In this document: one piece after another, positions 53,818-63,055 of the stretch
How positions within the stretch are numbered: the stretch's first letter is position 1
How the letters are laid out: every line of letters starts with the position of its first letter
From: Leptolyngbya sp. BL-A-14
GTDB lineage: Bacteria; Cyanobacteriota; Cyanobacteriia; Leptolyngbyales; Leptolyngbyaceae
Assembly (NCBI GenBank): GCA_041937185.1
Contig: CP166621.1
Span: 2,324,571-2,388,570, forward strand
Reading direction: 5' to 3'
Length of the DNA: 64,000 nt
Position numbers and translations under genes: made by a program
The notes under the pieces: generated by a model
Seen by the model: the letters and a program-made list of their open reading frames with translations, nothing else
What the model was told of the DNA's origin: nothing
Database searches by the model: none

Positions 53818-54405
53818 CTATTTTTCTTGCCCGATCGGCTCATCAATGGCGGCACTTTTCATCGAGGCAGCTGGAAGCGTTGGGTTCGTCCCCGCATTCA
53901 AGTGATTTCCTTGCGGTTCCACATTGATGCCCTTCACCTGCTGCATCAGACTTGCCATTTCTAACGCACTCATTGCGTAGTTCCAGCCCAGGTTGCTCTT
54001 GATACCTGCTCGCTCCAGGGCTTGCTGCATTGTGTCAGTCGTCAGCACTCCAAAAATGACGGGCACTCCTGTCTGGAAGCCGACGGCTGCAATACCCTTG
54101 GAGACTTCTGCTGCCACATAGTCAAAATGGGGTGTTTGACCTTTGATGATGGCACCGAGACAGATAATAGCGTCGTAACGATTGGTCAGCGCTAGCTGCC
54201 GGGCCACTAAAGGCACTTCAAAGCTACCAGGCACCCAGGCGTAGTCGACCTGTGTCCCGTTTGGATCGGTATTAACCCCGTGCCGCTTAAGACAATCCTG
54301 GCAGCCTTCTAAAAGCTTTGTGGTGACCAGGTCATTAAACCGACCAATCACGATCGCAAACCGCATGCGGTCTGTTTGAGTGAACGTTCCTTCAAAAACT
54401 GCCAT
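53818..54405 (-). CDS. ribH: 6,7-dimethyl-8-ribityllumazine synthase
   Basis: …[13 protein letters not shown]…, …[20 protein letters not shown]…. Confidence 0.9.
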
Positions 54406-54533
54406 GTGCTTCTCAATTTAAAGACCTTCCCCACCAGCGCAGGACTTATAGAATGGACGTCTCTTGCTGATGGGGCATACGTTGATCTTAAGCGAGTGTT
54501 CTTATCGCGGAGTAATCTGTAGACCAGATACGA

Positions 54534-54722
54534 TTAAACAACCAGGTAATTCAGTCCTCCTACCAGCAGAACCAGCACTGTCCACACAATCGAACCGAGA
54601 AAGATAAGACGCTTGGACTGATCCCAATTTTGTGGGGTTGCGAGAGCGACTGGCGCACCAACAACCATCACAAACGACAAAATAACTAGAGCCGCCAGGG
54701 AAATCTGGAAGACGATGGTCAT
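54534..54722 (-). CDS. psbZ: photosystem II reaction-center protein Z (PsbZ/Ycf9)
   Basis: 62 aa [62 protein letters not shown]; GGAGAAG RBS upstream of the ATG at 54722. Confidence 0.85.
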
Positions 54723-54845
54723 AATTTCCGCTTCTCCAATACAGCGATAGATTAGGCATAGGACATCAATGCGGACGATCGCACACAGCCCCACTTAAGT
54801 AAGCTATCAGAAAACTGTACCTATCTTATGGAGGGATTTGGGATT

Positions 54846-55012
54846 GGAGGAGAAGGCAGAGGGCGGAGGGCAGAAGGCAGAGGGCAGGAGGCAGGAGGCA
54901 GGGGGAGCAGGGGGAGCAGGGGGAGCAGGGGGCTAAAGGCTAAAAGGCTGGACTACTGACTCATGCATGGTTAACTCATAACTCATAACTCATAACTCAT
55001 AACTCATAACTC
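54846..55012. repeat. composite STRR-like tract: GGCAGAR heptamers, GGGGGAGCA units, GGCTAAA units, then (AACTCAT)x5-6
   Basis: Divergent promoter region between psbZ and the CCA enzyme gene is composed almost entirely of tandem short units. Confidence 0.8.
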
Positions 55013-55025
55013 TCTCTTCCCTCCC

Positions 55026-58010
55026 ATGCATCTCATCCTCTGCCACACGACTGCTGATTTCGACACATTGGGTGCGGCTGTTGGGCTGACGCGCTTACAG
55101 GCGGGTGCGCGTATTGTGCTGGCGGGTGGGACGCATGCTGCTGTAGGCGATTTTTTAGCCCTGCATCGGGATGAGTATGGTTTGATCGAGCGTCGATCGG
55201 TGAAGGCAGCCCAAATTCAAGCGATCGCTGTTGTGGATACGCAGTTTCGCGATCGGCTAGGCAAGGTTGCAGAATGGCTTGATTTACCAGATGTCGAAAT
55301 TTCGGTTTATGACCATCACCTCGGTGTGGAGTCTGACATTCAAGCAACCAAACGCCAGATTGAAGCTGTTGGGGCAACGACAACCCTGATTGTAGAGAGC
55401 CTTCAGGCGCAACAGGTAACGCTCACGATCGCCGAAGCGACCGTCATGGCATTGGGCATTCACGTGGATACGGGTTCGCTAACCTTTGACCAGACGACGG
55501 CACGGGATGCCAAAGCCTTGGCATGGTTGCTGGAGCAAGGAGCCAATTTGAGAACGATCGCTCATTATGCCGATCCAGGTCTTCCAACGGAGCTGCAGCC
55601 GTTGTTGACGACAGCCCTCAAGGCAATGCAAACCGAAACTGTGCACGGTAGAACAGTCAGTTGGGTGATGTTGACGCTGGATAGTTTTGTCCCAGCTTTA
55701 TCCAGTTTGGCATCGCACCTGATGAGCCTGACAGATAGTGATGCGTTGCTGCTGGCGGCAAACTACTGCAAGAATGCTGCCTGCCGTTCCAACCCTGAGG
55801 AGAACGACGATCGTGCCTTAACTGTCATTGGGCGATCGCGCATTGATGGCACTGATTTGAACGCCCTGTTTAGCGCGAGTGGTGGCGGCGGACACCCCCT
55901 TGCTGCGTCAGTGAATCTTCGTGCCGTTGACCCACAGGAGACCCTTGCCGAATTGGTGGCTCAATTCAAAGCACAAATTCCCCAGCCGCCAACAGCGCGA
56001 GACCTGATGTCCTCACCTGTCCGTACCATTCGGCCCGAAACTACGATCGAAGAGGCACAGCGATTGCTCCTACGCTACGGGCACTCTGGCTTGTCGGTGG
56101 TAGAAGCCAATGGGCAGCTCGTCGGTATGATTTCGCGCCGTGACCTGGATATTGCCCTCCATCATGGGTTTAGCCATGCCCCTGTTAAGGGCTACATGGC
56201 CACCAACCTCAAAACCATCACGCCCGACACCTCTCTGCCTGAAATTGAAGCGCTGATGGTGACCTATGACATCGGTCGCTTACCCGTGCTGGATCAGGAT
56301 CAGCTTGTGGGGATTGTGTCTCGTACAGACGTATTGCGCCATTTGCATCAGGCAATCAAGAGGCAGGGGACAGTGGACGGGGCGCAGGGGACAGGGAGCA
56401 GGGACACACGTGCCTTTACTTCTGACTCCACCGCAAGGGGGAAGCACGCGACACTCTTAGCTTCTGACTCCTTGCTCCTGACAACTCTGCGTCAGTGTCT
56501 TACCCCTGAACTCTGGCAGGTCTTAGCAGCAGCAGCGGCAGAAGCGGAACAGCGAGGATGGCATCTTTATCTGGTGGGGGGAGCCGTGCGAGACCTCTTG
56601 CTGGCGATCGCGGCTGGCACCGCTACAACTGGCAACCTTTTGCTGGAAGATGTGGATCTAGTGGTAGATGGGTTTCATCGGGCAGCGGATGTGGGGGCAG
56701 GGGTTGAAATGGCGCGATCACTCCAAACCCTTTATTCCGAAGCGCGTCTGGAGGTTCACGGCAAATTTCAGACGGCAGCGTTGCTGTGGCATAACGATCC
56801 GATACTCAAATCGCTCTGGGTTGATTTTGCGACGGCCCGCACAGAGTTTTATCCTTACCCAGCCGCCAACCCGGAAGTAGAAGCCAGTTCAATTCGGCAG
56901 GATCTGTATCGTCGCGATTTCACCATTAACGCGATGGCAATCCGCCTGACCCAGCCCCATGCAGGCGAACTGCTTGATTTTTTTGGTGGAATACTTGACC
57001 TGCAAGCAAAGCAGATTCGTGTTCTCCATGCCAACAGTTTTATTGAAGATCCCACGCGGATCTACCGGGCCGTGCGCTTTGCGGTGCGTCTGGGCTTCCA
57101 ATTAGACAGCCAAACAGAAGGGTACATTCGTTATGCGATCGCCAGTGGCGTTTACGCTCAGGCACATCAAAGCCACGATCGACCACCCAACAAGTCACCC
57201 ATAACCGCACCGGCTCTGCAAACTCGACTCAAGGCGGAACTCAAATACATTCTGCAATCGCCTTACTGGAAGCCTGCGCTGAAGTATCTGGCTGAGCTAG
57301 GGGCGCTGCAATGCATTCACCCAACCTTGGCGATGGATAGGGACTTGTGGCGGCAACTGCGGTTGGTTGATCGATGGTTGAGGAGGCAGGAGGCAGGAGG
57401 CAGAGGGCAAGAGGCAGAAGGCAGAAGGCAGAAGGCAGGAGTTGGGGAAGCAGGGGGAGCGGAGGGGGCAGAAGGCAGAGGGCAGAAGGCAGCTTTTATC
57501 CTTTATCCTTTATCCTTCAGCCTTCCCCCTTCATGGTTAGTGCTGCTGGAAGTGCTGCTCGCTCATCTTGCCGCCGAGTATCGCGGTCTTGTCGCAGAGA
57601 GGCTTCAGCTACCACTGGATAGTATCGAACGGTTGCAGCAGTTAGAAGTGGCTCAAACCAACCTGATGAATGCCCTGCCAACCTGTCAGCGTCCGAGCGA
57701 ACAAATTCAGCTGCTGAAGCCGTATGACCCACTGCTTTTAGCGTTGATTGCGGTGCATAGTGGACGATCGACGTCGAAGGCCGCCAACGATGTATCACCC
57801 CGTCGCAAAATCTGGCAGTATCTCACCTGCTGGAGCAACCTTAAGCCGCTCTTAGATGGGAACGATCTCAAAACAATGGGCTACAAACCCGGCCCACAAT
57901 TCAAGGCAATTCTGGATGCACTCCTAGCCGCTACCGCAGACGGCGTCATTTGTACCCGTGCTGAAGCAGAACAATACGTTGCAAAAAACTTCCCTATACG
58001 AGACAAATAG
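55026..58010 (+). CDS. multidomain CCA tRNA nucleotidyltransferase / poly(A) polymerase family protein with N-terminal DHH-DHHA1 and a CBS pair
   Basis: DHH (…VYDHH…); DHHA1 (…GGGGHPLAAS…); two CBS domains; Pol-beta NTase head (…LYLVGGAVRDLLL…RRDFTINAMAI…); two in-frame repeat-derived low-complexity insertions. Confidence 0.8.
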   Translation: MHLILCHTTADFDTLGAAVGLTRLQAGARIVLAGGTHAAVGDFLALHRDEYGLIERRSVKAAQIQAIAVVDTQFRDRLGKVAEWLDLPDVEISVYDHHLGVESDIQATKRQIEAVGATTTLIVESLQAQQVTLTIAEATVMALGIHVDTGSLTFDQTTARDAKALAWLLEQGANLRTIAHYADPGLPTELQPLLTTALKAMQTETVHGRTVSWVMLTLDSFVPALSSLASHLMSLTDSDALLLAANYCKNAACRSNPEENDDRALTVIGRSRIDGTDLNALFSASGGGGHPLAASVNLRAVDPQETLAELVAQFKAQIPQPPTARDLMSSPVRTIRPETTIEEAQRLLLRYGHSGLSVVEANGQLVGMISRRDLDIALHHGFSHAPVKGYMATNLKTITPDTSLPEIEALMVTYDIGRLPVLDQDQLVGIVSRTDVLRHLHQAIKRQGTVDGAQGTGSRDTRAFTSDSTARGKHATLLASDSLLLTTLRQCLTPELWQVLAAAAAEAEQRGWHLYLVGGAVRDLLLAIAAGTATTGNLLLEDVDLVVDGFHRAADVGAGVEMARSLQTLYSEARLEVHGKFQTAALLWHNDPILKSLWVDFATARTEFYPYPAANPEVEASSIRQDLYRRDFTINAMAIRLTQPHAGELLDFFGGILDLQAKQIRVLHANSFIEDPTRIYRAVRFAVRLGFQLDSQTEGYIRYAIASGVYAQAHQSHDRPPNKSPITAPALQTRLKAELKYILQSPYWKPALKYLAELGALQCIHPTLAMDRDLWRQLRLVDRWLRRQEAGGRGQEAEGRRQKAGVGEAGGAEGAEGRGQKAAFILYPLSFSLPPSWLVLLEVLLAHLAAEYRGLVAERLQLPLDSIERLQQLEVAQTNLMNALPTCQRPSEQIQLLKPYDPLLLALIAVHSGRSTSKAANDVSPRRKIWQYLTCWSNLKPLLDGNDLKTMGYKPGPQFKAILDALLAATADGVICTRAEAEQYVAKNFPIRDK

Positions 58011-58020
58011 CGCTTAAAAG

Positions 58021-58090
58021 CTACCACCCCATCCCCTATCCCCCATCCCCTATCCCCCATCCCCTATCCCCCATCCCTCCACCCATTCCC
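58021..58090. repeat. STRR-like heptamer tract (CCCCTAT/CCCCCAT)
   Basis: ccccatcccctatcccccatcccctatcccccatcccctatcccccatccc. Confidence 0.8.
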
Positions 58091-58156: not shown

Positions 58157-59653
58157 ATGAACTTAACGGCTGGCACAGCGCTGCAACAGGGCAAATATGT
58201 CCTTGGTAACTCTTTGGCTCAAAGTGCGTTAGGGCTTACCTTTAGAGCGACTCAAGCGCGATCGCAACAGCCAGTTGTGCTGCAAACACTACGGGTTCAG
58301 CCGCAAACCGATATTGCCCATCTAAAGCGTCGGTTTATCGAGGAGGCACAGCGTTTGGCGCAATGTCAGCACCCCGGTTTAGTGCGCGTGCTGGATGTGT
58401 TTGAGGAAGGTGGGCTACCGTTTGCAGTACTGGATGATGTGGCAGGGCAGACGTTGGCGGAACGAGTACGATCGCGGGGACCGTTACCAGAAGCGGAGGC
58501 CGTACAGTATATTCGGCAGGCTGGTTCGGCGCTCAGTGTCATGCACCGCCAGGGCTTGCTTCATCGGGAGGTTAACCCAGAACACCTGATCCGTCCCAAA
58601 GGAGCGTCGTTTGTGGTGCTAGTCGGTCTTGGCATTGCCCATTATGCGGTGCTGGGTGTACCAGACAGTGCAGAAACGATATCTCCCTATGCCGCGCTTG
58701 AGCTACAGCAGCGACAGATCAATCTCACCCCTGCGGTTGACCTCTATGCGCTTGCGGGAACGCTGTACTTTTTAGTCACAGGGCAGGAACCGATCGCAGC
58801 CTTGCGCCGTACACAAACGCCTTTACGTTCGCCGCGTCAATTACAACCGCAGTTAAGCAGCGCGATCGAACAGGCCATCCTCAACGGTATGGCACTTAAC
58901 CCCTCAGAGCGACCACAAACCGTTGCAGCCTGGTTCTCGCTCCTGCCAAATCATCAACCAACGGTGCCAGGAGGAGTTCATGGCGCAGGACAACCGCGTG
59001 CGATCGACTTACCCAATCCAGTAGCATCCAACGGCTCTAGTCGCACAACTGCCCCTCCCGCACCCCCTTTAATTCCCGTAGTGGCAAGCACTCCCGTTGC
59101 ACCCACTCATGCTCCAGAAACTTATAGCCCAAACACTCATACGGTCGCAGCATCCAATCGCCCATCTCTCCCCACGCCGATGATTGCCAAAAGCCGCTTG
59201 CCTAAAGCACTGCTGCTAACCGGTGCTGTAGCGATCGCAGGGGGGGCTGGCTTGGGATTGGCACTGCGCCTGAGTGCGGCTCATGGCATTGGTCCGACGC
59301 TCTTTCAAACCCGGCAAGACTTTCCACCCGTGCAGAATTGGCCGTTACAAGCCGCTCCTGAGGAATTGTCAACCGCTCCACCACCGCCCGTAGACCCCTT
59401 GCCTATGCGCAGCTTTGCGCCTGCTCCCTTGCCCAAAGTGAGATACTCGCCCAGCCCATCACCCCAACCCGTCACGCCTGAACCTCTACCAAGCGCGACG
59501 ATCGAAGCCAGTCCCTTGCCCACGGCTAGCCCGACTATCCCTAGCGTTCAACCTTCACCCCAACCCAGTCCCGTCCCTTCGGCAGTCTTGTCTCCGCGCC
59601 CCCTTCCTTCTGTACAAACGCCTGCTAATGCTCCTGGCTTACAGCGTTTGTAG
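58157..59653 (+). CDS. Ser/Thr protein kinase-like pseudokinase with a Pro-rich C-terminal region and a predicted TM segment
   Basis: Kinase-fold order is recognisable, but the Gly-loop, VAIK Lys (here VVLQ), HRD/K (here HREVNPEH), DFG (here GLG) and APE (here ALE) positions are all substituted. Confidence 0.65.
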   Translation: MNLTAGTALQQGKYVLGNSLAQSALGLTFRATQARSQQPVVLQTLRVQPQTDIAHLKRRFIEEAQRLAQCQHPGLVRVLDVFEEGGLPFAVLDDVAGQTLAERVRSRGPLPEAEAVQYIRQAGSALSVMHRQGLLHREVNPEHLIRPKGASFVVLVGLGIAHYAVLGVPDSAETISPYAALELQQRQINLTPAVDLYALAGTLYFLVTGQEPIAALRRTQTPLRSPRQLQPQLSSAIEQAILNGMALNPSERPQTVAAWFSLLPNHQPTVPGGVHGAGQPRAIDLPNPVASNGSSRTTAPPAPPLIPVVASTPVAPTHAPETYSPNTHTVAASNRPSLPTPMIAKSRLPKALLLTGAVAIAGGAGLGLALRLSAAHGIGPTLFQTRQDFPPVQNWPLQAAPEELSTAPPPPVDPLPMRSFAPAPLPKVRYSPSPSPQPVTPEPLPSATIEASPLPTASPTIPSVQPSPQPSPVPSAVLSPRPLPSVQTPANAPGLQRL

Positions 59654-59803: not shown

Positions 59804-60538
59804 ATGATTGAAACGCTGCAAACCCAGCTTTATGAGTTAGAACACTTTGCAACCACGCTGGTGGGAACGCAACTGGCTCATCTAACGCCAGCCAGTGTCG
59901 GCATCATTTTTGTGGCAGGACTGCTGACCAGTCTCACGCCCTGCATGCTGTCCATGCTGCCCATTACGATCGGCTACATTGGCGGCTACGAAACTCAAAC
60001 ACGGCTACAGGCAGCAGCACAGTCCACCTGGTTTGCATTGGGATTGGCGACGACGCTGGCTGGGTTGGGCATTGTGGCGGCAGTAGTCGGCAAGATTTAT
60101 GGTCAGATTGGGTTAGGGCTACCGATCGTCGTGAGCGCGATCGCGATTCTAATGGGGCTAAACCTGCTGGAAGCGTTACCTTTGCGGCTCCCCTCCGTCG
60201 GTGGTTTGGAATGGATTTCTAAGGATTTGCCGTCTGGTGTGCGTGCCTATCTGATTGGGCTAACGTTTGGCCTAGTGGCGTCCCCCTGTAGCACGCCTGT
60301 CTTGGCTAGCATTCTGGCCTGGATTTCGGCAACAAAAGATCCGGTCTTGGGCAGTGTGCTGTTGCTGTCCTATACCGTTGGCTACGCGGCACCACTGGTG
60401 TTGGCAGGAACGTTCACAGCCTCAATCAAAAAACTGTTGGAGCTTCGTCGCTGGTCCGGTTGGATTACGCCAGCGAGTGGCGTTTTGCTCGTAGGCTTTG
60501 GCGTCTTCTCCCTACTTTCGAGAGTTGCTAGTTTTTAG
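59804..60538 (+). CDS. ccdA: cytochrome c-type biogenesis protein CcdA
   Basis: Two conserved Cys in TM regions (…LTPCMLSMLP…, …ASPCSTPVL…); ATG at 59804. Confidence 0.85.
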   Translation: MIETLQTQLYELEHFATTLVGTQLAHLTPASVGIIFVAGLLTSLTPCMLSMLPITIGYIGGYETQTRLQAAAQSTWFALGLATTLAGLGIVAAVVGKIYGQIGLGLPIVVSAIAILMGLNLLEALPLRLPSVGGLEWISKDLPSGVRAYLIGLTFGLVASPCSTPVLASILAWISATKDPVLGSVLLLSYTVGYAAPLVLAGTFTASIKKLLELRRWSGWITPASGVLLVGFGVFSLLSRVASF

Positions 60539-60644: not shown

Positions 60645-62042
60645 ATGGCTGCAAATTCTTCCCTCTTCACGCGTCTATCTGGGTTAGGAACGGCTTTCCA
60701 AAGCTTTTTCCGGCGTGAACTCCTGCCTGTCTTGTCTGATTTACGCTTGGCGATCGTCCTGCTGCTGGCGATCGCGCTGTTTAGCGTCACAGGGACGGTG
60801 GTTGAGCAAGGGCAGTCTGCCGCCTTTTATCAAGCCAACTATCCAGAGCATCCCGCCCTGTTTGGCTTCCTTACCTGGAAGGTGCTGCTGGCGTCGGGGC
60901 TAGATCATGTCTATCGGACGTGGTGGTTTCTGTCACTGCTGATTTTGTTTGGGTCGAGTCTGACAGCCTGCACCTTCACGCGACAACTTCCGGCCTTGCG
61001 TTGGTTTTCGCGCACATCGCGTAAGTTCTACAGTCAGCCACGACAGTTTCAAAAGTTTGCCCTCAGCGCTGAATTTAACCAAACGTCGCTGGATGATGTG
61101 TTGCCGTTGCTGGAACAAAAGCGATACAAGCTCTTTCGTCAAGATGATGCCGTGTACGCGCGTAAAGGCATTGTGGGGCGCATCGGACCAATCGTCGTTC
61201 ATGCCAGTATGCTGCTAATTTTGCTGGGCGCGATCGTCGGGGCGCTGATGGGGTTTGTGGGGCAAGAAATGGTGCCCAGTGGTCAGACATTTCAAATTAA
61301 AAACATTGTGGATGCGGGACCTTTTGCCGAGTCACAGATTCCCAAAGATTGGTCGGTAAAAGTGAATCGCTTTTGGATTGACTACACTCCCCAGGGCGCG
61401 ATCGATCAGTTTTACTCAGATATGTCGGTGCTGGACAGCGATGGCAAGGAAGTCAAGCGCAAAACCATTCATGTAAATGAACCGCTGCGGTACCGTGGCG
61501 TCACGCTTTATCAAGCCGATTGGGGCATTTCGGCAGTGCAGGTTCGCATCAACAACAGCCCGATTTTTCAACTCCCAATGGCACAGCTAGATACGGGCGG
61601 CAAAGGCGGACGCATCTGGGGCACCTGGATTCCCACAAAGCCAGATTTAAGTGCCGGCGTGTCTCTCATTGCCAAAGATTTACAGGGCATGCTGCTGGTC
61701 TACGATACCTCTGGCAAGCTGATTTCCACCGTTCGCGCTGGCATGTCTACCCCAGTGAATGGCGTCACGCTGGCAGTGAAAGAACTCATTGGCAGCACCG
61801 GATTGCAAATTAAAGCCGACCCCAGCATCCCGATCGTCTACGCTGGCTTTGGGCTGCTCATGTTGGGCGTCATGATGAGCTACGTCTCTCATTCCCAAAT
61901 CTGGGCACTTCAAAAAGATGGCAACCTCTACATCGGCGGGCTCACCAATCGTGCTCAAGTTGCCTTTGAACGCGAAATGTTGGAGATTTTGGAACGGTTG
62001 GATACGCAAAAACAAGAAACGAATGCGGTTGTGACGGTGTAG
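60645..62042 (+). CDS. ccsB: cytochrome c biogenesis protein CcsB (Ccs1/ResB family)
   Basis: 465 aa; N-terminal TM pair, large lumenal domain, C-terminal TM; lies adjacent to ccdA. Confidence 0.85.
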
Positions 62043-62164
62043 CGCGATCGGTTCTCAATTGTTATCAGTAAAAAGAAAATACAAAATTTACCGCACAGGT
62101 GCAAAGAGCGTAGAGGGTTTGCTCTGTGTTCTCTGCGTCTCGGCGGTATACCAGACGCAAAGCC

Positions 62165-63055
62165 ATGTTACCCTGCCTGCCACCACCACCACTACAAAGA
62201 GGTGATTTACTGCGAGTGATTGCCCCCAGCGGCACCTTGCGAGAATTTGAATCCTTTCAGCGTGGGGTTGAGATCTGGCGATCGCGCGGCTACCAGGTTG
62301 AACTCACTCCCAGTTATGACGATCGCTGGGGCTATCTGGCAGGGAAGGATGGCGATCGACGCCAGCAGTTGCTTACCGCACTCGACGATCCAGACTGTCG
62401 TGGTATTCTTTGCGCACGCGGTGGCTACGGTGGTGCACGTCTGCTCGAAGACTGGTCGTGGACAGGGCACGAGCCCAAATGGCTGATTGGGTTTTCGGAT
62501 ATTACGAGTCTGCTGATGAGCCTCAGTCTAGAGGGAATCTCCGGTGTGCATGGACCACTGTTGACCACGCTGGCCGCAGAACCGGAATGGTCTGTACAAC
62601 GCCTGTTTGATTGGGTAGAAGGACGATCGCTGGCACCGTTGCAAGGAACACCTTGGGGCGGTGGGCAAACGTCTGGGTTGTTGCTCCCGATCAACCTCAC
62701 AGTAGCAACAAATCTGCTGGGAACGCCTGTACAGCCTGATTTTGCCGACACGATTCTGGCATTGGAAGATGTCGGGGAAGCGCCCTATCGCATCGATCGT
62801 ATGTTGACCCAGTGGCGACTCAGTGGTGCGTTTAAGCAGGTGAAAGGCATTGCGATCGGTCGGTTCAGCCAGTGCGATCCACCTGCCCACATTCCCAGCT
62901 TTACGGTAGAAGAGGTACTGCGCGATCGCCTGGGCAAATTAAACATCCCGATCGTATCAGACTTGCCCTTTGGTCACGATGGCGTCAACGCGGCCTTACC
63001 AGTCGGCATCATGGCACAATTGGACGGCGATCGAGGGCTTCTAGCCATTGGTTAA
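62165..63055 (+). CDS. ldcA: LD-carboxypeptidase (peptidase S66, muramoyltetrapeptide carboxypeptidase)
   Basis: …LRVIAPSG…, …GFSDITSLL… nucleophile motif; ATG at 62165. Confidence 0.8.
   Translation: MLPCLPPPPLQRGDLLRVIAPSGTLREFESFQRGVEIWRSRGYQVELTPSYDDRWGYLAGKDGDRRQQLLTALDDPDCRGILCARGGYGGARLLEDWSWTGHEPKWLIGFSDITSLLMSLSLEGISGVHGPLLTTLAAEPEWSVQRLFDWVEGRSLAPLQGTPWGGGQTSGLLLPINLTVATNLLGTPVQPDFADTILALEDVGEAPYRIDRMLTQWRLSGAFKQVKGIAIGRFSQCDPPAHIPSFTVEEVLRDRLGKLNIPIVSDLPFGHDGVNAALPVGIMAQLDGDRGLLAIG

Follow-up and report, generated by a model that had tools for sequence, protein, structure and literature searches.

A predicted membrane-anchored pseudokinase of Leptolyngbya sp. BL-A-14 and the cyanobacterial family that shares its membrane module

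The kinase-like domain and its active site

The DNA analysed here (the window) is a stretch of 64,000 nucleotides of contig CP166621.1 from Leptolyngbya sp. BL-A-14 (assembly GCA_041937185.1, forward-strand positions 2,324,571 to 2,388,570). An open reading frame (ORF) that starts with ATG on the plus strand of the window encodes a protein of 498 residues, in which a kinase-like domain is followed by a linker, a single transmembrane (TM) helix, a short juxtamembrane motif and a low-complexity tail (Table 1). The start codon is supported by the conserved N-terminus of the orthologs (MNLTAGT..., with M1 invariant). A 100% identical protein from the metagenome-assembled genome of Leptolyngbya sp. 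BL-A-14 (P0001; homologous proteins are cited by P numbers and loci by L numbers) carries the database name 'serine/threonine protein kinase'. It is encoded on a contig of 7.19 Mb, which marks the window as chromosomal DNA of a filamentous cyanobacterium. The data presented below indicate that the protein is a pseudokinase, predicted to keep the architecture of the kinase fold and to have lost its chemistry.

Table 1. Features of the pseudokinase gene and of its neighbours in the window. AF2, AlphaFold2; pLDDT, predicted local distance difference test score; dN/dS, ratio of nonsynonymous to synonymous substitution rates.
Feature	Coordinates	Strand	Basis or remark
Complete coding sequence of the predicted membrane-anchored pseudokinase, 498 residues and stop	58157..59653	+	ORF list
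Cytoplasmic kinase-like (pseudokinase) domain, residues 1-265	58157..58951	+	Pfam PF00069, AF2, Foldseek, dN/dS
Remnant of the Gly-rich loop, LAQSALGLT	58214..58240	+	alignments to PknB
Gln43 at the position of the ATP-anchoring beta3 Lys (VVLQ vs VAIK/VAVK)	58283..58285	+	alignments; AF2 strand 38-45
Glu63, retained alphaC glutamate (FIEEAQ)	58343..58345	+	alignments; AF2 helix 53-68; aligns to PknB Glu59
Degenerate catalytic loop HREVNPEH	58562..58585	+	alignments to PknB, MAFFT, hmmalign
GLG for DFG, Mg-binding Asp replaced by Gly157	58625..58633	+	alignments to PknB, MAFFT, hmmalign
ALE for APE (S-P-E in PknB), Glu182 kept	58694..58702	+	hmmalign column
Arg252, partner of Glu182	codon 58910-58912, inside NPSERPQT 58898-58921	+	coordinates from alignment
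Pro/Thr/Ala-rich disordered cytoplasmic linker, residues 266-344 (79 residues)	58952..59188	+	22% Pro; pLDDT about 45-60
Single TM helix PKALLLTGAVAIAGGAGLGLALR, about residues 349-371, with small-residue (Gly/Ala) motifs	59201..59269	+	hydropathy, charge bias
Extracytoplasmic juxtamembrane signature motif GIGPTLFQTRQDFPPVQNWP, 20 residues	59285..59344	+	family-defining module
Pro/Ser-rich low-complexity extracytoplasmic tail, residues 397-498	59345..59650	+	pLDDT 50-70
ribH	53818..54405	-	upstream of pseudokinase gene
psbZ/ycf9	about 54534..54725	-	upstream of pseudokinase gene
DHH-CBS-PolyA_pol nucleotidyltransferase, 994 residues	55026..58010	+	upstream of pseudokinase gene
ccdA	about 59804..60538	+	downstream of pseudokinase gene
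ccs1/resB	60645..62042	+	downstream of pseudokinase gene
LD-carboxypeptidase	62126..63055	+	downstream of pseudokinase gene

The kinase-like fold was recognized both in the sequence and in a predicted structure. The Pfam Pkinase model (PF00069) matched residues 22-239 with E=4.1e-20 and 72.7 bits (cut-off 31.7), and the closest sequence relatives of solved structure were M. tuberculosis (Mtb) PknB (E about 1e-21), S. pneumoniae StkP, PknE and PknA, over a range of E=1e-21 to 1e-15. An AF2 model, calculated from a 73-sequence alignment, had a pLDDT >90 for residues 1-265. The model is bilobal, with strands beta1-beta5 and helix alphaC in the N-lobe and helices alphaD-alphaI in the C-lobe, all in the canonical order, and it retains a full-length activation segment and the alphaG helix. 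The best Foldseek matches for the model were Mtb PknA (4ow8), S. aureus PknB/Stk1 (4eqm) and Mtb PknB, with E values of about 1e-17 to 1e-18, a TM-score (target) of about 0.78 and a probability of 1.00.

The positions of the catalytic motifs were determined with four different methods: (i) pairwise HMMER alignment to PknB; (ii) a MAFFT alignment of 120 homologs together with PknB; (iii) hmmalign to the hidden Markov model of the family; and (iv) the secondary structure of the AF2 model. All four yielded the same motif columns, and the HMMER alignment to PknB was free of gaps throughout the N-lobe. The sequence LGFGGMSE of the Gly-rich loop of PknB corresponds to LAQSALGL, where Ala21 and Ser23 stand in for the first two Gly of GxGxxG. 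K40 of PknB is replaced by Q43, and this Gln is common to the six closest orthologs and P0010. Relative to the catalytic loop of PknB (HRDVKPAN), the Asp has become Glu138, the Lys Asn140 and the Mg-binding Asn His143, with His136 and Arg137 being kept. In the AF2 model, Q43 lies in strand beta3 (residues 38-45), E63 in helix alphaC (53-68), HREVNPEH (136-143) directly after alphaE, GLG at 157-159, ALE (180-182) at the start of the alphaEF helix and D195 in alphaF. The assignment of ALE as the counterpart of APE is further backed by relatives that read GYAPPE or GYAPLE. The positions of the catalytic K/D/D triad are taken by Gln43, Glu138 and Gly157, that is, all three residues are lost. Overall, eight out of eight scored positions have changed (both loop Gly, the beta3 Lys, the HRD Asp, the Lys and Asn of the catalytic loop, and the Asp and Phe of DFG); the only scored residues found in canonical form are the alphaC Glu, the HRD His-Arg and the Gly of DFG. 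The protein is the most degenerate one within the 90%-identity set.

An initial annotation of the window had described the ORF as following the order of a Hanks-type kinase fold while having lost every catalytic signature. The fold order was borne out by the Pfam match, the AF2 model and the Foldseek matches; structure prediction had been proposed as a check and returned, with high confidence, a bilobal kinase fold whose nearest matches are PknA and PknB. The motif changes that had been listed (no Gly-rich loop, Gln for the beta3 Lys in VVLQ, HREVNPEH and GLG) were recovered with each of the four mapping methods. Misalignment that hides canonical residues, which would have undone the pseudokinase assignment, is ruled out by the agreement between these methods, including the AF2 secondary structure. 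The loss of every signature was an overstatement: the chemical residues are indeed gone, but the structural ones are kept, namely the HRD His-Arg, Glu63 of alphaC, Glu182 of APE, Asp195 of alphaF and Arg252 between alphaH and alphaI. Similarly, ALE had been correctly assigned to APE, but the important residue of this motif, Glu182, is retained.

The selective constraint on the gene was estimated from Nei-Gojobori codon alignments against four orthologs (Stenomitos rutilans, Leptolyngbya ES-bin-22, Tildeniella nuda and S. frigidus), at a dS of 0.8 or more. The dN/dS values were 0.12-0.14 for the whole gene, 0.09-0.115 for the kinase-like domain and 0.10-0.19 for the extracytoplasmic tail; the Pro-rich linker evolved fastest (0.13-0.46) and showed many indels among the orthologs. 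The ORF is intact in all orthologs and full-length in all relatives down to about 40% identity. A comparison with orthologs had also been suggested, and these proved degenerate too, but in different ways: the residues at the catalytic positions vary from one ortholog to the next, with the fold under strong purifying selection. In the six closest orthologs, the HRD-Asp position reads E/D/G/D/A/D, the catalytic-loop Lys position N/K/T/A/K/K, the Asn position H/N/H/H/H/N and the DFG position GLG/GLA/GLH/GLN/GLS/GTG. Strong constraint on the fold together with free drift at the active site is what a true pseudokinase is expected to show, and the variation among the closest orthologs argues against a hidden alternative catalytic mechanism. 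With at least one triad residue lost, the fold intact and the gene maintained by selection, the protein is a pseudokinase by the operational definition of the term.

The membrane module and the family it defines

The hydrophobic segment that follows the linker has a 19-residue Kyte-Doolittle mean of about 2.0 and is flanked by four K/R residues on its N-terminal side versus one on its C-terminal side, a bias that places the kinase-like domain in the cytoplasm. The helix is preceded by a conserved KSRLPKAL sequence and contains, in the family alignment, the near-invariant residues G363, G365, G367, L368, L370 and R371. Beyond the membrane, GIGPTLFQTRQDFPP (residues 377-391) conforms to the consensus G-x-G-[PS]-x-x-F-x-T-x-Q-x-F-P-P, and none of 47 family members deviates at G379, F383, Q387, F389 or P390. 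In these 47 relatives, KSRLPKAL, the TM helix (AIAxGxGLGLxLR) and the juxtamembrane consensus together make up the best-conserved stretch outside the core of the fold. The remainder of the tail (residues 401-498) is 32% Pro and 14% Ser, and a Pfam scan detected no domain in it. The Pro-rich tail with a hydrophobic segment and the membrane association, both part of the initial annotation, were thus found again as a Pro-rich linker and tail on either side of one conserved TM helix, whose flanking charges follow the positive-inside rule.

The TM/juxtamembrane module is present in P0001 to about P0055, as well as in the proteins of Crinalium and Allocoleopsis, and is absent from the canonical-kinase relatives retrieved in the same search. 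As far as can be judged from sequence, the TM helix and the juxtamembrane motif define a cyanobacteria-wide family. A profile built from 47 module-bearing proteins was used to search 1.84 billion cluster representatives, and the best 150 matches, all below E=1e-92, included 51 module-bearing representatives and 78 single-domain ones without the module, as classified by hmmalign (Table 2). Among the 51 module-bearing representatives, 51% retain the first loop Gly and 41% the second, whereas the structural residues are kept almost throughout (HRD-His in 100%, APE-Glu in 96%, alphaF-Asp in 98% and the Arg in 96%). The residues that replace the catalytic ones are very diverse across the family, and Fitch parsimony on a neighbour-joining (NJ) tree of 92 members gave, as a rough estimate, at least 11-19 state changes per catalytic position. 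It appears that the catalytic residues have been lost many times independently in a family whose structural residues are nearly invariant.

Table 2. Canonical residues in representatives with and without the TM/juxtamembrane module, taken from the best 150 matches of the family profile.
Feature	Module-bearing (n=51)	Single-domain without module (n=78)
beta3 Lys kept	78%	95%
HRD Asp kept	49%	85%
Catalytic-loop Asn kept	69%	91%
DFG Asp kept	49%	87%
K/D/D triad intact	39%	74%
Fully canonical	1/51	50/78
All three triad residues lost	8/51	0

Two proteins that occupy the same position in their genomes differ in this respect. The positional ortholog of Crinalium carries the TM module and is canonical (GKGVFG, VVIKT, HRDIRPQN, DFG), so that at least one family member looks like an active kinase. 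The Allocoleopsis ortholog also carries the module and is degenerate (GQDALT, VVIRT, HGD, GLG), in convergence with the window protein. The family is a natural series of apparently active (Crinalium), partly degraded and fully degraded members (the window gene) with one shared membrane module, and would be useful for asking what role a kinase fold plays once catalysis has become dispensable. All database names that were found for family members are of the generic 'protein kinase' type, and the label 'serine/threonine protein kinase' is probably wrong for the window gene as well as for 61% or more of the representatives of the family, namely those without the K/D/D triad.

Degenerate kinase-like groups without the TM/juxtamembrane module were observed as well (P0057, P0059-P0065, P0069-P0071 and loci L010-L014). 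They include a Coleofasciculus/Microseira group with LCEVGML in place of DFG and a group of roughly 700 residues with VWLQTL, HWDIQPQHL and THLSWA. Loci L010-L014 were left out of the analysis as a different group (36-39% identity, kinase domain only, DUF6825 not adjacent). Other close relatives without the module are giants of 1300-2600 residues with 4-6 tandem kinase-like domains, canonical and degenerate ones mixed (P0274, P0303, P0318, P0324, P0306, P0352 and P0368). The two-domain relatives P0244, P0247 and P0249 have the K/D/D triad in both domains, the second of which has Ala at the first position of the Gly-loop. Pseudokinases appear to be common among the Ser/Thr kinase paralogs of cyanobacteria.

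Gene neighbourhood and possible partners

Three genes come after the family gene, in the same orientation, in Kovacikia minuta, in Pantanalinema and in a third distant member; they encode a DUF6825 protein (108 residues), an ABC1/UbiB-type atypical kinase (590-685 residues) and a PP2C phosphatase (roughly 247 residues). By tblastn the trio was detected directly downstream of the family gene in L003-L009 and L015, and in total the order family gene, DUF6825, ABC1, PP2C was found in 13 loci (L003-L009, L015, L017, L018, L019, L021 and L022). Two of the genomes were found via homologs of DUF6825: Crinalium epipsammum PCC 9333, with the full order ribH, psbZ, DHH/CBS/PolyA_pol, kinase-like gene, DUF6825, ABC1, PP2C, and Allocoleopsis franciscana PCC 7113, with the same order and one TPR gene inserted. 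The linked loci have three different upstream contexts (PolyA_pol, DEAD helicase or isochorismatase). With a constant trio downstream and variable genes upstream, the family gene and the trio have the appearance of a unit. In L009 (Cyanobacteriota bacterium JS3, a MinION-only assembly), tblastn split each of three genes, those for the DEAD helicase, ABC1 and PP2C, into several overlapping pieces in different frames, which most likely reflects frameshift errors of the nanopore assembly and not real pseudogenes. In Crinalium PCC 9333, a second, canonical Hanks kinase (507 residues; L021 9910-11433, minus strand) and nblA lie just downstream of the PP2C gene; this kinase is possibly an active partner kinase near the cluster.

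The PP2C protein is a close homolog of Thermosynechococcus tPphA (E=1e-85; 2J82, 2J86, 2XZV, 2Y09, 5ITI). In Synechocystis, spkI (sll1770, ABC1-type) is located directly upstream of pphA, the gene for the PII-P phosphatase (PMC11863333), and both SpkI and PG18, which is encoded by the neighbouring gene sll1769, belong to the cyanoglobule proteins (PMC12223511). The order sll1769 (PG18), sll1770 (SpkI, ABC1K7-like), sll1771 (PphA) is the same as that of the trio downstream of the 13 family members; unlike these loci, the Synechocystis locus has no Hanks-type gene reported as part of it, and unlike it, the window is devoid of the trio. Judged by gene position alone, DUF6825 would correspond to PG18 (sll1769). 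NCBIfam contains no model for DUF6825, nor was DUF6825 mentioned in the literature that was searched. Its homologs are named inconsistently in the databases, for instance as 'thylakoid lumen protein' or 'polyhydroxyalkanoate synthesis regulator phasin', and several other names are plainly spurious.

The linkage is broken in the genome under study. In the 64-kb window, tblastn detected no DUF6825, ABC1 or PP2C gene, and the pseudokinase gene is instead followed by ccdA, as in the three nearest relatives with long enough contigs: S. rutilans (L001), ES-bin-22 (L002) and Lyngbya HA4199-MV5 (L023). In three of the four unlinked genomes ccs1 comes after ccdA, the exception being L023, in which tocopherol cyclase also replaces PolyA_pol upstream and the adjacency of pseudokinase and ccdA is kept. 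In S. rutilans the DUF6825/ABC1/PP2C trio is intact on another contig. In the NJ tree, the unlinked genomes form one clade together with P0003 and P0006, and the loss of adjacency is a derived rearrangement that the window has in common with L001, L002 and L023. The six proteins of the clade all have Gln at the beta3 Lys position; the HRD Asp is lost in three and the Asn in four. Both the HRD Asp and the Asn are still present in the closest relatives that are linked to the cluster (P0007-P0023), so that among the nearest relatives these losses are confined to the subclade of the window. The break-up of the cluster and the further decay of the active site thus coincide, which is suggestive only, because a single evolutionary event is concerned.

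With a probability of about 0.72, we take the protein to be a single-pass membrane protein, kept by selection, with an intact kinase fold from which all residues for ATP binding, Mg binding and phosphotransfer have disappeared, and which would act as a non-catalytic docking or allosteric module. The protein would work without catalysis, tethered to the membrane as part of Ser/Thr phospho-signalling, and would engage a partner through its pseudokinase domain on the cytoplasmic side of the membrane. The first candidates would be the enzymes encoded beside it in the ancestral gene order (PphA-type phosphatase, SpkI-type ABC1 kinase) or else a catalytically active Hanks paralog. The paralog could dock through a PknB-type back-to-back interface of the N-lobes; the near-invariant residues K13 and D80 align to R10 and D76 of the back-to-back dimer of PknB. 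The TM/juxtamembrane module may mediate oligomerization or contact with a partner in the membrane or on the extracytoplasmic side: the Gly/Ala-rich composition of the helix and the invariance of the juxtamembrane motif suggest a further interaction, either within the membrane or outside the cytoplasm. The position beside a PphA-type phosphatase and a SpkI-type ABC1 kinase, in a locus that has been studied in connection with PII signalling and cyanoglobule biology, provides a concrete partner hypothesis. A more specific version is that the family, with the window protein as its catalytically dead extreme, is the missing fourth component of the PG18-like/SpkI (ABC1K7-like)/PphA locus, docking to or regulating PphA or the ABC1 kinase at the membrane, with the competent orthologs of the Crinalium type as candidate kinases opposite PphA. 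We regard this version as quite unlikely, and the probability that the PphA/SpkI link connects the family to PII signalling is likewise low; if true, it would bear on the unsettled identity of the cyanobacterial PII kinase.

Several observations weigh against the docking or allosteric module. The identity of the partner and the scaffold or regulatory role, which the initial annotation had also suggested, are what we infer and not what was observed. The pseudokinase gene of the window genome no longer adjoins the phosphatase cluster. The block of ribH (minus), psbZ/ycf9 (minus) and DHH-CBS-PolyA_pol (plus) is syntenic from the Leptolyngbyaceae to Crinalium and Allocoleopsis (window 53818-58010, L001-L008, L015, L018, L021 and L022), and with unrelated upstream genes equally syntenic, the conserved gene order has limited weight for functional coupling. 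The third residue of the putative interface, L33 in PknB, is Ser36 in the window protein, although Leu is the consensus of the clade. The count of independent losses by Fitch parsimony is inflated by errors in the NJ tree, and this tree, rooted on canonical relatives, did not settle the monophyly of the module-bearing family. Finally, some proteins without canonical residues bind nucleotide or have other activities, such as WNK, CASK, SelO and SidJ.

This last point bears on whether the domain could still be an enzyme, either an atypical kinase with displaced residues (WNK-like) or a protein with another nucleotide chemistry (AMPylation as in SelO, glutamylation as in SidJ). Proteins classed as pseudokinases can be active (PMC12599244), Glu138 provides a carboxylate at the position of the catalytic base and the alphaC Glu63 is kept. 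However, all ligands of ATP and Mg are gone together (both Gly, Lys, Asn and the DFG Asp), no compensating Lys or Asp is found among the invariant columns, and orthologs of 73-80% identity differ at the base (E/D/G/A) and in the loop (N/K/T/A and H/N) without conserving an alternative catalytic set, which makes residual enzymatic activity very improbable. A non-functional remnant of a decaying kinase gene, that is, a young pseudogene with an open frame, could account for the most degenerate motif set in the family and for the loss of the ancestral neighbours. It is effectively ruled out by the dN/dS values of 0.09-0.14, and the full-length ORFs of the relatives, the invariance of the N-terminus, the TM helix and the juxtamembrane motif, and the confident AF2 fold point in the same direction.

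Alternatively, the working part could be the TM helix with the juxtamembrane motif and the tail, for example as a structural or spacing protein of the envelope or the thylakoid, with the kinase-like domain as a mere stable cytoplasmic anchor that plays no part in signalling. The module is the most conserved stretch of the family, including its five invariant residues; it is what separates the family from ordinary kinases, and even the low-complexity tail is under purifying selection. On the other hand, the kinase-like domain is constrained to an equal or greater extent (dN/dS 0.09), the surface positions of the regulatory dimer interface of PknB (K13 and D80) are kept, and the conserved neighbours are signalling enzymes (ABC1 kinase and PP2C). 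We consider this alternative unlikely; it is partly compatible with the docking or allosteric module.

Relation to known systems and immediate surroundings

The protein resembles Hanks kinases of the PknB/PknA type in its overall layout: a kinase fold in the cytoplasm forms the N-terminal part, a disordered juxtamembrane stretch leads to one TM helix, and the C-terminus lies outside the cytoplasm. It differs from PknB, PknA and Stk1 in that the Gly-rich loop, the beta3 Lys, the Asp, Lys and Asn of the HRD region and the DFG Asp are missing, and in an activation segment that is shorter and devoid of the Thr pair. Unlike in PASTA kinases, the extracytoplasmic part is a short conserved motif with a Pro/Ser-rich tail. 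Assignment as a PASTA kinase (Stk1/PknB, NF033483) was rejected: the match reached 115 bits vs a cut-off of 450 and covered the kinase domain only, and there was no PASTA match in Pfam.

Pseudokinases of bacteria have barely been studied experimentally (PMC12599244). Seven bacterial families that consist of, or are rich in, pseudokinases have been described: ActPs1-3, GLW, DLHK, CP1 and DYD (bioRxiv 10.1101/2025.01.12.632604; PMC12599244). Like these families of the bSTK atlas, the window protein has a Hanks fold with degraded VAIK, HRD and DFG motifs, and canonical-looking and degenerate members occur side by side in its family, as they do in CP1 and DYD. CP1 is the only one of the seven families said to occur in cyanobacteria; its members are cytosolic and always fused to COG3899 (PMC12599244). 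It was rejected since the window protein has only Pkinase-type Pfam matches and one TM helix. The proteobacterial GLW family has GLW for HRD and a poly-Leu (LLLL/W) beta3 strand (bioRxiv 10.1101/2025.01.12.632604; PMC12599244), positions at which the window protein has HRE and VVLQ; this family was rejected too, and only a TM helix C-terminal to the pseudokinase domain is shared with it. None of the seven families has the TM/juxtamembrane motif or the DUF6825/ABC1/PP2C neighbourhood, and the atlas lists no cyanobacterial TM pseudokinase family (its Cyan1/Cyan2/Cyan3 constraint patterns were not compared). Among the bacterial Hanks-type pseudokinases, the family is thus undescribed, judged against the descriptions of the seven families. 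Pseudokinases of such architecture were already known; what is added here is that the family is graded, that its membrane module is conserved and that it is linked to the PphA/SpkI locus. As functional parallels for a scaffold role, EssB/YukC (T7SSb) and the pseudokinase domain of MviN/MurJ (ActPs3) come closest, being membrane-anchored, non-catalytic modules of assembly or regulation. The window protein differs from these in that there is no type VII secretion or MurJ context and in that the full-length activation segment and alphaG are kept.

As to the immediate surroundings of the gene, a search of the 64-kb window by tblastn, with the pseudokinase domain and with a canonical kinase domain, revealed no kinase paralog. 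A scan for promoters and terminators around the pseudokinase gene did not rise above background and says nothing on operon structure. Heptanucleotide tandem repeats are present at 57381-57524 and 58027-58077. The first of these regions, with arrays of AGGAGGC, GGCAGAA and TTTATCC, falls within the 3' part of the DHH-CBS-PolyA_pol gene, where the translation shows an odd insertion rich in GRRQ/EAEG; the second consists of seven copies of CCCCATC in the 146-bp intergenic region directly upstream of the pseudokinase gene. These arrays look like the short tandemly repeated heptamers of filamentous cyanobacteria.

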